NCBI GenBank assembly: GCA_965218095.1
Contig: OZ244587.1
Span: 5,856,001 to 5,920,000, forward strand
DNA from: Candidatus Poribacteria bacterium
GTDB lineage: Bacteria; Poribacteria; WGA-4E; PCPOR2b
Direction of reading: 5' to 3'
DNA length: 64,000 bases
Shown: piece by piece, positions 6,665 through 15,770 of the stretch
How positions within the stretch are numbered: position 1 is the stretch's first letter
Layout: each line of letters starts with the position of its first letter
Translations under genes and position numbers: made by a program
The notes under the pieces: model-generated
Database searches by the model: none
Told to the model about the DNA's origin: nothing
What the model saw: only the letters and a program-made list of their open reading frames with translations

Positions 6665-7408
6665 ATGTTAGTTCGCATGTCATTTACAATAACAATCTCC
6701 ATTTTCCTAGCGGGATTGGTCTGTTGCTTTATGTTTGGCTGTGACGATCAATCAGAAGCATCTCCTGCACACCCTGAAATTCAGATCTTGCAGGTTGGTG
6801 CATTTCACAGTGATGAAGTATCCGCAAAGTCAGGTGAAGTCTGGCTGGGATTGTATCTGACGCAAAATGGATATGAGTTAATCCCTTCAAGGATTACAGT
6901 AGAAGCTGTTTATGATCCGCTAGTTGATGCTGAAGGGGAGAAAACCGGCAAAGTAGTATCGGTAAGAAGCCCAATCGAGCCGATTTTTCTGGTGCAGAGC
7001 TTGGGAATGCTGAAAAGCGGAACCGTCAAGACGCTATTTTCTGAGCAAACAATTTTGGCTCCGGGCAAGTCTCTGAGTTTTACATTTGACAACAAAGCTG
7101 AGTATTATTTGACGGCGTTTGGTGAGGGAAGCATAGATTCGACCGGGTTTACTTCACTTCAAAACTACACAGTTGAGCTATCGCGGGGACAGTTGTCACA
7201 GGTAATTCTTTCATATAGCTCGACAAATGATGCCGTACCAAGTCTCCTTTGGGCTGGGGATTTGGATCGAGACGGTAAATTGGACTTACTTGTTAACGCA
7301 ACCCCTCATTATGTCGTATATTCAGCGTCGACACTGTTTCTTTCGTCCATGGCTGAAGACGGTAAATTATTGCAGAAAGTCGCCATGTTCGTTGCTTCTG
7401 GATGTTAG
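6665..7408 (+). CDS. Putative lipoprotein with FG-GAP-like motif
   Basis: Hydrophobic signal ending MFGC; WAGDLDRDGKLDL. Confidence 0.65.
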   Translation: MLVRMSFTITISIFLAGLVCCFMFGCDDQSEASPAHPEIQILQVGAFHSDEVSAKSGEVWLGLYLTQNGYELIPSRITVEAVYDPLVDAEGEKTGKVVSVRSPIEPIFLVQSLGMLKSGTVKTLFSEQTILAPGKSLSFTFDNKAEYYLTAFGEGSIDSTGFTSLQNYTVELSRGQLSQVILSYSSTNDAVPSLLWAGDLDRDGKLDLLVNATPHYVVYSASTLFLSSMAEDGKLLQKVAMFVASGC

Positions 7409-7916
7409 TTGAACTGAGGAGGAGACTTGAGTGTGTTTCTGTGTAGCAAGATGTAATGGGGGTTTGAATCCCCTGACAGTAACTTGCAACTGTCAGCCTA
7501 ACCTTAACAGCGTCGCTGGAAACGGCGGGGTTGGAAGCAAAGGGACAAGGCGAACACCCTATGGGAATGTAGACCCAAAAATAGGTGTGTCAGGCTAAAG
7601 ACGGCAAGGCTAAAGCGAAAGTTGAACTGATGTTTGAAGCCCCGTTACCTCCAAACGGGTTAATCTACAAAGGGAAGAATTGAGATAACTTCCTAGTATC
7701 AGTCTGTAGACAAGAATGTCAAAGTGGCGTGGGTGACTTTTTTGTAATAAGTCACAATAGGAAGGTGTTTTCAAGTTACGCCTTCTAGCAAGTCGAATGC
7801 CATCGGGGTAAAATCAGAGCCTAAACCGTCTGCGAATGTACATCTTGTAAGAACAGGAAAGTCCCTAAGTTTCTCATTGAGAAATATGGGAGAGGAGATT
7901 CGATAGACTTATCATA

Positions 7917-8852
7917 ACCCAAGTTGCGACCTATTCATCGAATATGTGAGTGAACTCAGAGCTGATTGATACTGCTAGCCAATACAAACAAGACCACTTT
8001 CAATTCAAATCCGTGTTGCGTTACTGCATGGATTGAACGTGGAAGCAGTTTGTTAATCAAACTGCCAGCCGTCTCAACAGACTTACGATGGTAATTAGCC
8101 AAGTAGGTCTCCCATGGTGGATACAGCCGCTTGGAATTCTTCTTGCGTACTGGCTTTAATTCGACTCCGACTGATGTAACAATATCTTCTATCTCATAAT
8201 TATTGTATGCTTTGTCACCATAGCCCGGTGGCAAGTCGAAGTCAAACCACTGTAACCCTTCAACGTCCCCTGTACTGGCTGGGGTCACAAAAAATTCAAC
8301 AGGGTGTCGACTCGCAGTCACTAGCAGATGAACTTTCAAGCCATAGAAATACCGACGTTTGGACGCTTGATAGCCTCGATATGCCTTATCGGTGTAGATT
8401 TTTGACCGACGAATGCGGAACAAACAGCAATTGGTATGGTATCCAGTGCATAGATTTTCTGTTGATTAAGTTGCACATAGCTTCGTCCCAAGATTTTGAA
8501 CAATGTGGTGAACATCGGTTTAATTCGATGAAGTCGTCGGTTGAATCGACTTTTTGAAAGCATCTTGGGTATATAGCCATGAGTCTTTAGAAAGTCACAA
8601 GTGGTTTGCAAGTTTGCCCCGAAGAACAACGCAACGACGATGCCGGTGGTCATCACTTCGGCATCAGACATCTGCGTTTGTGGGTGTGGTTTTGAGTTGA
8701 GTGCTTCTAAGAGCTTGTCACAGAGATAGAAAATGGTTGCAATTTGGATGTCCATGGGTTTCTCCTTTGGTTTCTCCTTTGAGGTATTATGGTTTGGATT
8801 ACCTCTACTTTAACGGAAAACCCATGGATTTTCAATTACTAGCAACTTGGGT
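7917..8852 (-). mobile_element. IS982-family insertion sequence
   Basis: Terminal IRs ACCCAAGTTGC/GCAACTTGGGT; 7-bp TSD TATCATA at 7910-7916 and 8853-8859. Confidence 0.9.
7956..8755 (-). pseudogene. IS982 transposase, frameshifted
   Basis: Two overlapping ORFs (MSDAEVMT...SRFNRR; YFYGLKVHL...GDKAY...RKSVET) with a frameshift near 8420. Confidence 0.85.
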
Positions 8853-9187
8853 TATCATAAGTCAAGCCGAATCAGAGTCATGGTTTTAGAAGGATTCTGA
8901 AATAGGTTTATCGCTACGGAGATAATCAGGGTAACATGAAACCTGTCCACCGAGCGGATTAGACATTATGTCTGAGAATCTAAAGGAATCCGGACAAAGC
9001 GGTTGCAAATAGTGATACAATAACCTGTAAAGGAAGTCTAAGGGCAACGCAACCTATCGCAACCTTAGAACCCTCAAACCATCTACAGTTTAATCGCCAC
9101 TTATGACTGGGCAAGCCGTATGCGGCGAAAGTCGCACGTACGGTTTAGAAGCAGGGAAAATTCCGCGAGAAATCTACCTATGCTTAC

Positions 9188-9408
9188 TGGGGGACAAACG
9201 AAAAGAGAAGCTAGGCCTCAGATTAAGGGCATCGAAAGAATGGGTTGCGTGTTTTGGGACGAACGCAAAATCCTTAATCGAAATCCCGTGGGAAAGGGGG
9301 GTGGAGTTTTCGGCCGCAGAATGTATGGCAATTGCTGCGTCCGCACAGGAATTTCAGCGTGGTGAAAGCTCAGAAGTACGCAACAGCAACTGCGTGATAC
9401 GCCTATAG
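9188..9408 (+). pseudogene. 3' exon: N-terminus of a ferritin-like-domain protein, truncated by IS3 sequence
   Basis: Splicing gives A|TG GGG GAC: MGDKRKEK...EWVACFGTN...IPWERG...AIAASAQEFQRGESSE; IS3 orfB sequence begins at about 9375; family call from motif recall. Confidence 0.55.
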
Positions 9409-9959
9409 CCATATTTCGGATAACGGGCAGATAGTTTTTCGATTTCATCTCGTAGCACTTCGTAGCACTGGTTCTAAGGGGTCGCTTTTAGGTTGATAAT
9501 AGAGACTGCTCCGATTGAAGCCGAGAACCTCACAAATGTGTCGAACCGAGTAATCGGTATGTAAAGCCTCAACTATCTGTCGCTTTTGAGACCGATTCAA
9601 GTCAGCCAAGTCGAGGCTTTTTTTGGATGTCTAATGCCAGGGTCAATCGACCGACGAGTTGCTCCAGTTGAGCAATCCGCTCTTTAGAGTCGTTGGATTG
9701 CTTATCAGTGGATTCAAAGAGAATCGCTGCGTTGTCAAGGAGTTGGTGTTTCCACTTTGATAGTTGTTCTTCGCTGAGGTTATGCTGTCGACAGAGTTGC
9801 GCTTGTGAACTTTGGTTGGTAAGTGCCTCAATAACGACTTCCGCCTTAAATTGGGGTGTGAATCTTCTTCGTTTTGCCATCGGATTCTCCTTTCAATCTG
9901 ACTGTCATTGTATCACAATCTTGGTTTAGACAATGGGCTAAATTTCCGATGGCAGTACA
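9375..9959 (-). mobile_element. IS3-family element, left part (IRL, orfA, 5' of orfB)
   Basis: IRL TGTACTGCCATCGGAAATTTAG on minus strand; orfA HTH; A7G slippery site near 9617-9624; orfB fragment LSARYPKYGYRRITQLL. Confidence 0.85.
9602..9880 (-). CDS. IS3 transposase OrfA
   Basis: MAKRRRFTPQFKAEVV...LSKWK HTH. Confidence 0.88.
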   Translation of the reverse strand: MAKRRRFTPQFKAEVVIEALTNQSSQAQLCRQHNLSEEQLSKWKHQLLDNAAILFESTDKQSNDSKERIAQLEQLVGRLTLALDIQKKPRLG

Positions 9960-10420
9960 GTAATTTAGACCACAAATAAGCAAAGTTAAACCAAGTGTTG
10001 TTGCTCAAATTCACTCGGCGTCAAATACCCTAACGCCGAGTGAGGTCGTTTCTGGTTATAAACTTGTCCAATAAAATGCCCGATTCGCGCTCTGGCATCC
10101 ATTATATCATCGTAGCCATTGAGATACACCTCTTCCTCCTTGAGGGTTCTTATCAGTCTTTCGGCGTAGCCGTTCTCCCACGGACACCCCCGATGGGCTA
10201 AGGAGATGTCAATCCCATGACCGATGAGAGTGGAAATATAAGCTGTCGAAAGATACTCAACTCCCTGGTCGCTAGGGTGAATCTCTGGAATGCTTTGGCT
10301 TAATGCCTGTTGCAACGGTCTCAATGTGAGAGGTTGTGTCAACTGCCGACTCAGTTGCCAGCCTCTTCCCATTCGAGTCAATACATCGATTAACACCGAA
10401 ACATAGATGAATTGCCCCCC
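9960..10420 (-). mobile_element. IS3-family right part (orfB integrase core fragment, clipped IRR)
   Basis: SDQGVEY, ENGYAERLIRTLKEE, YNQKRPHSALGYLTP; inner IRR GTAATTTAGACCA abuts the neighbouring IRL. Confidence 0.85.
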
Positions 10421-10429
10421 CGATAAGAT

Positions 10430-11026
10430 CGGGATTCAAAGCAACTTGAGATGTTGCGCAATGCGAGTTTTGACAAAAACCTTCCCTTTACAACCGTTTT
10501 AGTTGACAGTTGGTATGCCTCCCGTCAAGTGCTTGTTTACATTCAACGGCTTGAAAAGGTCTACTATTGTCCGCTAAAGAGCAACCGTCGTGTTGACGAT
10601 TCGGATGGCAAACACCCACACCAAAGAATTGACCAACTCAACTGGAGTGAAACCCAACAGACCCATGGGAAATCCATCCACCTGAAGAATTTCCCCAAAG
10701 GTCATCGAGTGAAGTTTGTGCGCTCCACCGAGCGCACGGAATATGTCGTGACCAACGACCTCACTCAAGATTCGACGACTCGTTGGAAGATTGAGCAATT
10801 TCACCGACAAGCCAAACAGGTCACCGGTCTTCAACGCTGCCAGTGTCGCAAACAGAGGGGGGTGAGAAATCATATTGGGTGTTCGATGTGAGTCCGGGTC
10901 AAACTCAATCGTCTTGCCCGTCAGACCGGCAAGATGATTTACCAACTCAAGGAGTCACTGCTTGACGATTATCTGCGTCAGCAACTGCTTTCACCTTTTA
11001 TTCCAATGACTCTTGCGTAAGTCCTA
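10430..11026 (+). pseudogene. IS701-family transposase 3' remnant
   Basis: VLVDSWYA...RWKIEQFHRQAKQVTGL..CQCRK...RNHI; internal TGA at 10889; end motif TGCGTAAGTCCTA. Confidence 0.8.
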
Positions 11027-15697: not shown

Positions 15698-15770
15698 TCT
15701 CCCGTAGCTCAGCTGGTAGAGCAGGTGGCTGTTAACCACTTTGTCGGCGGTTCGAATCCGTCCGGGAGAG
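15698..15770 (+). tRNA. tRNA-Asn(GTT), CCA not encoded
   Basis: Acceptor stem TCTCCCG/CGGGAGA, D arm AGCTCAGCTGGTAGAGC, anticodon loop CTGTTAA, T loop GGTTCGAATCC. Confidence 0.97.

Follow-up and report, generated by a model that had tools for sequence, protein, structure and literature searches.

How does a group II intron come to lie between the first and second letters of a start codon, and what does such a position mean for the gene behind it? The question is raised by a locus in a 64,000-nucleotide stretch of a Candidatus Poribacteria genome (GenBank assembly GCA_965218095.1, contig OZ244587.1, positions 5,856,001 to 5,920,000 of the forward strand), which we call the window and whose coordinates are used below unless genome coordinates are indicated. 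Our analysis makes it probable that the element at 7431-9187 is a derivative of an IIB1-like group II intron without a reverse transcriptase (RT) of its own, that it entered the start of a small gene by reverse splicing, guided by pairing of its exon-binding site 1 (EBS1) with the adjacent exon and of its exon-binding site 2 (EBS2) with the Shine-Dalgarno (SD) sequence, that its lineage recurs at translation starts, and that the window copy is a relic.

The window element is a genuine group II intron, whose extent and recognised domains are the following:

7431 to 9187, plus strand: group II intron, including an insertion sequence (IS) lodged in it, from its ends, Rfam and paralog comparison.
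7475 to 7612, plus strand: domain I segment, matched by Rfam group-II-D1D4-7 (RF02012).
9111 to 9187, plus strand: domains V and VI with the 3' splice site, matched by Rfam RF00029.

Its ends, GTGTG at 7431 and AC at 9186-9187, agree with the group II boundary rule (5' GUGYG, 3' AY), are shared by the aligned paralogs, and are those given by an initial annotation made from the letters of the window, now supported by Rfam as well. The match to domains V-VI covers the full model (1-77) with 58.5 bits against a cut-off of 40 (E 6.4e-09), while the domain I match is weak, with 38.5 bits against a cut-off of 34. As the initial annotation had also stated, no RT is encoded within the intron. The segment spans 1757 bases, of which the intron proper accounts for approximately 814 nt (7431-7915 plus 8859-9187); the closest uninterrupted paralog, at genome coordinates 267583-268385, is 803 nt long and 76-84% identical to it.

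The contacts that the intron makes with its 5' exon involve four short segments:

7418 to 7422, plus strand: intron-binding site 2 (IBS2), the SD core GGAGG at exon positions -13 to -9, pairing 5/5 with the loop bases 7648-7652.
7425 to 7430, plus strand: intron-binding site 1 (IBS1), ACTTGA, the 6/6 complement of 7771-7776; the split start codon begins with its final base, A7430.
7641 to 7659, plus strand: EBS2 hairpin with a 6-bp stem and the loop 7647-7653, in which EBS2 is CCTCC at 7648-7652, from sequence and covariation.
7761 to 7785, plus strand: EBS1 hairpin with a 7-bp stem and an 11-nt loop, in which EBS1 is TCAAGT at 7771-7776, from sequence and a family-wide test.

Both pairings had been proposed from the window alone, and both held when examined across related introns from this genome and the genomes of relatives, for which the loop was taken by alignment column and the exon by a fixed register. 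The comparison comprised 42 distinct sites, six rows (L065 inner, L035, L070, L036, L052 and L089) being left out as their loop does not align as 7 nt. For EBS2 and IBS2, all five pairs form at 26 sites, four at 8 and three or fewer at the remaining 8, giving a mean of 4.24 compared with 2.34 +/- 0.16 when exons are permuted; none of 10,000 permutations reached the observed mean, and sliding the register by 1-3 nt lowered it to 1.8-2.7. Compensatory examples are found in which sites with very different exons carry matching EBS2 loops, and the ACCTCCA loop is therefore EBS2 and not some other tertiary contact, such as alpha/beta, which the initial annotation had named as the outcome that would undo its proposal. 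EBS1 behaves similarly: a 6/6 complement of IBS1 (G-U allowed) lies within intron nucleotides 290-400 at 26 of the 42 sites, whereas permuted exons average 15.1 such sites and never exceed 24 (0/2000 reach 26). The likeness of the EBS2 loop to the anti-Shine-Dalgarno sequence was confirmed too, as the 16S rRNA of this genome terminates at its 3' end in ...CACCTCCTTT and shares ACCTCC with the loop. The geometry is that of canonical IIB1/IIB2 introns, in which the consulted portion of Monachello et al. (2021, PMC8643678) describes a 5-bp EBS2-IBS2 duplex ending at exon position -13, with occasional one-nucleotide shifts; the duplex of the window lineage has the same length, ends at the same position and is likewise displaced now and then by one nucleotide. 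Two further genome copies, at 3601485-3602927 and 4514987-4516393, share an identical domain I sequence at different sites, and a single EBS1 loop serves both, the last six exon bases of each site pairing with one of two 6-mers that overlap within it.

These pairings suggest how the insertion may have come about. Reverse splicing would have placed the intron where translation of a small gene begins, splitting its start codon after the A, with EBS1 (7771-7776) pairing with the 6-nt spacer whose last base is the A of the ATG, and EBS2 (7648-7652), which carries the core letters of the 16S anti-SD, pairing with the SD GGAGG eight bases upstream of the junction. Because EBS2 pairs at -13 to -9, the insertion point would fall at start-codon distance from any SD, and with an anti-SD-like EBS2 only the 6-nt spacer read by EBS1 would be left to fit, making the ribosome-binding site (RBS) a generic address. 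Across the lineage, EBS2 is complementary very often to SD-like purine runs, and this complementarity, together with the register of EBS2, would account for repeated insertion in or next to start codons that belong to unrelated genes. At an intact locus, the RBS of the pre-mRNA would be paired to the intron and the start codon split or displaced; translation would accordingly require splicing.

The behaviour of the lineage was examined through its insertion sites. Genome-wide, there are 23 RF00029 matches over the cut-off and 22 BLAST matches to the 5' part of the window intron, and both ends could be mapped for 13 related copies; with 14 sites from relatives, the ligated context was examined at 27 sites in total. 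Among these is row L078, which has an uncertain intron 3' end and is counted as a non-start site, and 5' ends are likewise uncertain for the L038/L051/L072-74 group. At eight of the 27 sites, the intron lies no more than 4 nt from the start codon of a gene that has Pfam or homologue support. Two belong to this genome, namely the window site and a GFO/IDH/MocA oxidoreductase gene, where the first 11 profile positions, otherwise missing, are provided by the frame opened at the junction, which afterwards shifts frame; those of the relatives involve an M3 oligopeptidase, a PhyH dioxygenase, an Nramp transporter, a short-chain dehydrogenase (SDR), a sulfatase and a secreted Laminin_G_3 protein. Two further sites lie near starts, at +17 (zinc-type dehydrogenase) and -22 (methionine aminopeptidase). 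SD-like 4-mers occur at -16 to -5 in 18 of the 42 sites used for the pairing analysis, compared with a fraction of 0.10 at random genome positions, and 4 of 27 distinct types of EBS2 5-mer are exact substrings of the 16S tail. In a rough tree of the first 300 nt of the introns, computed with FastTree after removal of the loop columns and midpoint-rooted, SD-type loops and start-codon sites are spread over many deep branches, and non-SD types nest among them. The claim that this lineage targets an RBS plus start codon thus stands as to recurrence and fails as a rule for every copy; at the level of the lineage, the compared sequences support it as a strong tendency.

Two observations concern other settings of the family. 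In a twintron (rows L065/L030), a second family intron begins approximately 238 nt after the start of the outer one, just 3' of the outer EBS2 hairpin. An RT-bearing copy (row L086) lies inside a relative's RNase P RNA gene, with the RF00010 match at 82-354 and the intron start at 304.

On the 3' side of the window intron, two features determine what the split codon would have served:

9188 to 9376, plus strand: 3' exon, comprising the TG of the start codon and approximately 63 N-terminal codons of a conserved uncharacterised protein family, from homologue alignment.
9377 to 9880, minus strand: truncated multi-copy IS3-like element with an HTH_Tnp_1 frame at 9880-9602, from Pfam and the repeat boundary in read contigs.

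Ligation would join A7430 to TG at 9188-9189 in frame with a 73-codon frame ending at 9408, exactly as first described. The frame is a truncated gene remnant with approximately 63 family codons, which the initial annotation had not noticed. A HMMER search over 1.84 billion representatives returned 87 homologues at E <= 1e-3, with 27-68% identity over approximately 50 residues, and in an 18-row alignment with nine invariant columns the homologue N-termini match the split ATG within about 3 residues. The window frame follows the family to approximately residue 62-64 and then diverges, the longest aligned homologues having approximately 260-300 residues. We compared the window segment 7100-9500 with the contigs of four public runs, one metatranscriptome and three others, and found a repeat boundary exactly at 9377, marked by jumps in depth (9368-9448) and by loose ends in all four, at which other IS3-like copies continue with different sequence. 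A real gene thus has its true start at the split ATG, and the IS3-like element has cut it after approximately 63 codons. The family gave little to name it by: Pfam had no match to the frame, a word-based search of its 72 residues against 5.8 billion proteins found only the frame itself, and the genome holds no second copy of it. Among 20 homologues searched with Pfam, two had sub-threshold ferritin/rubrerythrin matches, 13 had none and the rest were fusions or noisy rows; because those matches are sub-threshold, we keep the label weak and describe the family as uncharacterised and possibly ferritin-like. As for unspliced RNA, the TTG at 7427 does lead to 9 codons and a stop, as the initial annotation had it, but this is not the sole frame, as the GTG at 7431 opens one of 55 codons. 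Downstream, transposase remnants are piled up at 9377-10891 (minus-strand IS3-like HTH_Tnp_1 and rve pieces, and a plus-strand DDE_Tnp_1 piece), and a tRNA gene lies at 15698-15770 (RF00005, 66.7 bits).

The intron itself has also been invaded, and the earlier picture of 7431-9187 as intron throughout had to be abandoned, since a 938-bp IS lies inside:

7916 to 8853, minus strand: insertion sequence, from its DDE transposase frames and the comparison of 27 genome copies.

Its transposase (DDE_Tnp_1_3, E 1.7e-07) is spread over two overlapping minus-strand frames, 8755-8336 and 8423-7956; its ends, read inward, are AACCCAAGTTGC; and it is flanked by a 5-nt target duplication, ATCAT, at 7911-7915 and 8854-8858. 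The genome contains 27 copies with both ends, the window copy included, and their comparison fixed the termini at 7916 and 8853. A 22-nt inverted repeat tried as the IS ends was rejected, as it is partly a hairpin of the intron's own. That hairpin, free of the IS, is retained in the uninterrupted paralog, so that the IS occupies the tip of a hairpin located between domains I and V. Invasion goes both ways between the IS and the intron family. At least four intron copies of this genome carry the IS, at differing positions (the window copy, those at genome coordinates 707444 and 4272802, and a 3' fragment at 4579245), and in relatives one intron subfamily is found at a constant position, 15 nt inward from the end of this IS family (rows L045, L046, L054, L055, L060, L062, L068 and others), where its EBS2 tracks a one-base change in that IS end.

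The initial annotation further supposed that the intron is mobilised in trans. One candidate partner does exist in the genome, where the only match to the maturase domain (GIIM) lies in the intron copy at genome coordinates 598220-600671, but the RT domain of this sole intron-encoded protein (IEP) is, as assembled, split over two frames near 599470-599494. With its gene truncated, an IS inside it and the only IEP split as assembled, the proposed dependence of downstream translation on splicing becomes moot for the window copy, which is a decaying relic. A different route of spread is seen in the genome copies at 1927835 and 2598356, which share an identical 50-nt 5' flank, one of them with a transposase fragment in its 3' exon; another mobile element probably carried this intron along when it was copied.

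Several observations weigh against the reading that an SD-guided lineage seeks gene starts and that the window copy is its decayed representative. At 17 of the 27 mapped sites there is no recognised start codon within 25 nt; they include a site internal to a binding-protein gene, an antisense site, a transposase-linked site, the RNase P RNA gene, an IS end, a twintron and sites with short frames only. In this genome, several ATGs formed at junctions open short frames only (17-44 codons). At the +17 site, the purine run that pairs with EBS2 consists of codons 2-3 and is not an SD. Copies at sites lacking an SD, which the initial annotation had regarded as damaging, are in fact the majority, with 24 of 42 sites lacking and 18 having an SD-like motif. 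Because sites share ancestry and EBS2 is inherited, the site counts overstate the number of independent events. On the side of the window copy, the downstream frame has no match in the 60 relatives' genomes and there is therefore no intron-free allele to compare, while an assignment of the IS-bearing hairpin to domain II or III, which bears on the effect of the IS on splicing, was rejected because minimum-free-energy folding was unconvincing. No junction joining 7430 to 9188 was observed in the metatranscriptome run or in the three other runs; since depth in the former is zero at 7343-7423 and 9206-9367, the exons beside both junctions, nothing can be concluded about that joint. A joint of 7910 to 8857 present in run contigs, with 16 differences nearby, was set aside as coming from an IS-free paralog or a relative rather than from the window locus. 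Finally, frame splits are frequent in this assembly and affect genes beside introns (genome coordinates 1600608-1601700, 5528122 onward and 600672 onward) as well as the sole RT, over two or three frames; errors of assembly, rather than decay, may explain the splits in the IEP and in neighbouring genes.

The alternative that survives best, though we hold it to be unlikely, would make the SD likeness a by-product. An ordinary IIB retroelement with a pyrimidine-rich ancestral EBS2 would go to purine-run targets, and survivorship would leave sites at 5' edges and between genes, with no evolved address. The 17 sites away from start codons fit such an account, and so do the non-SD EBS2 types, which are common and have ordinary homing specificities (IS-end, RNase P RNA and twintron sites); bacterial group II introns are, moreover, placed mostly outside genes or in mobile DNA by the consulted parts of two reviews (PMC4424553, PMC12584367). 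Survivorship alone, however, predicts intergenic scatter rather than a start codon no more than 4 nt away at 8 of 27 sites; for a random site and strand, the chance of such closeness is approximately 0.5% per site by estimate, not by computed control. Nor would it lead one to expect EBS2 types that are exact pieces of the 16S tail, or SD-type loops on many deep branches with the non-SD types nested among them.

Far less probable is the notion that the window element still works as a splicing-dependent translational switch for the downstream frame. EBS1 and EBS2 do match the exon perfectly, the IS is lodged at the tip of a hairpin, where large inserts may be tolerated, and the DNA contigs of the three other runs have the same arrangement as the window locus; yet the frame keeps only about 63 of the approximately 260-300 residues of its longest aligned homologues before running into the IS3-like remnant, and the only GIIM-bearing IEP of the genome is split into two frames. 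That the ATG at the junction is coincidental and the intron merely sits in an intergenic spacer is hardly credible, for although the word-based search and Pfam left the frame without relatives, the 87 HMMER homologues have N-termini aligned with the split ATG, and the SD stands at a normal distance from it.

With the reading of an RT-less, SD-guided derivative thus preferred, the lineage can be placed among known introns. Among the genomes sampled, it is confined to relatives titled Candidatus Poribacteria. A relative's IEP carries the domains RVT_N, RVT_1, GIIM and HNH, and its best solved relative is 6me0_C, the Thermosynechococcus IIB1 maturase (310.7 bits); by sequence, the RNA and the relatives' protein are IIB1/CL-like. 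In a midpoint-rooted IEP tree of small sampling (22 rows, 4 dropped for stops), which does not separate CL1 from another CL branch, the five rows of the lineage form their own clade with 100/100 support, a groEL intron groups with a proteobacterial set, and three cyanobacterial IEPs lie elsewhere. A cyanobacterial or plastid IIB2/CL2 reading, suggested by two 5' hairpins, was rejected: the genome has no PF00502 (Phycobilisome) hit at 93.9% completeness, the carrier relatives are titled Candidatus Poribacteria, ordinary IIB1 relatives have the same 39-60-nt 5' spacing, and the cyanobacterial IEPs form a separate clade.

The closest parallel in location is the specialised IIB1 clade of Michel et al. 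(2007), which the consulted part of PMC12584367 describes at start or stop codons of proteobacterial housekeeping genes (e.g. Avi.groEL and EcKTE56.groEL), defines by a 300-700-nt 5'-subterminal insertion, and, writing in 2025, leaves with the statement that how it finds its codons is unknown. The proteobacterial relatives, on which RF02012 scores 69-121 bits, include two groEL introns of this clade, each with the groEL stop codon at the end of its 5' exon. The window lineage resembles this clade in its RF02012 domain I, a type also present in EcI5-like introns, in the probably CL-type IEP with an endonuclease domain carried by relatives, and in insertion within or beside a start codon. It differs in having no large 5' insertion, the distance from the intron 5' end to the RF02012 match being 44 nt here and 39-60 nt in six ordinary relatives, against 340-357 nt in the two groEL introns; its IEPs form a separate clade, and its host genes are varied and non-essential. 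On these sequence comparisons, the window lineage resembles the specialised clade in location and is not a member of it. For the codon finding that the consulted part of PMC12584367 leaves unexplained in that clade, pairing of EBS2 with the SD would offer an explanation in the window lineage. One IIB1 intron with an enlarged 5' region, in a proteobacterial metagenome-assembled genome (row L098), appears to interrupt a tRNA gene.

For the genome-wide pattern, the nearest model is provided by the introns of Thermosynechococcus elongatus lacking an open reading frame (ORF), IIB1 introns that, according to the consulted portion of Mohr et al. (2010, PMC2882425), are mobilised in trans. As that portion describes them, the two systems share many RT-less copies alongside few IEP-bearing ones, specificity diverging through the EBS, IS insertions and twintrons; they differ in host phylum and IEP clade, and in the window genome the sole IEP is split as assembled. 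One T. elongatus family inserts between two start codons of an intron ORF, while neither an anti-SD-like EBS2 nor recurrent insertion at host-gene start codons is described in that portion of the account. Subgroup IIC introns, which insert after transcription terminators, may be compared by analogy in that a generic gene-boundary signal serves as the address at many unrelated sites; the window intron differs from them in having a covarying 5-bp EBS2 and a domain I match of IIB type.

A broader reading is attractive, and we put it forward tentatively, judging it somewhat short of an even chance: that this is an IIB1-like lineage of sponge-associated bacteria, found only in Poribacteria among the genomes sampled, in which EBS2 acts as a mimic of the 16S anti-SD, the RBS and spacer serve as a generic address that leads the introns to the start codons of many unrelated genes, and the RBS is masked and the start codon split or displaced in the pre-mRNA, so that translation follows only after splicing. 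It would represent a second independent origin of start-codon seeking and the first with a readable mechanism. Our literature search turned up no paper that connects EBS2 with the anti-Shine-Dalgarno, nor any that treats group II introns in Poribacteria; Michel et al. (2007) and supplementary tables lay outside the search and may bear on the point.

According to the consulted part of PMC12584367, the known cases of group II introns located at start or stop codons come from one proteobacterial IIB1 clade, and the lineage described here is separate from it. Its address is readable from the RNA, as the pairing of EBS2 with the SD and of EBS1 with the spacer provides a testable rule for how a retroelement may target translation starts. 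In its intact form, such an intron would constitute a natural design in which the start of translation depends on splicing.

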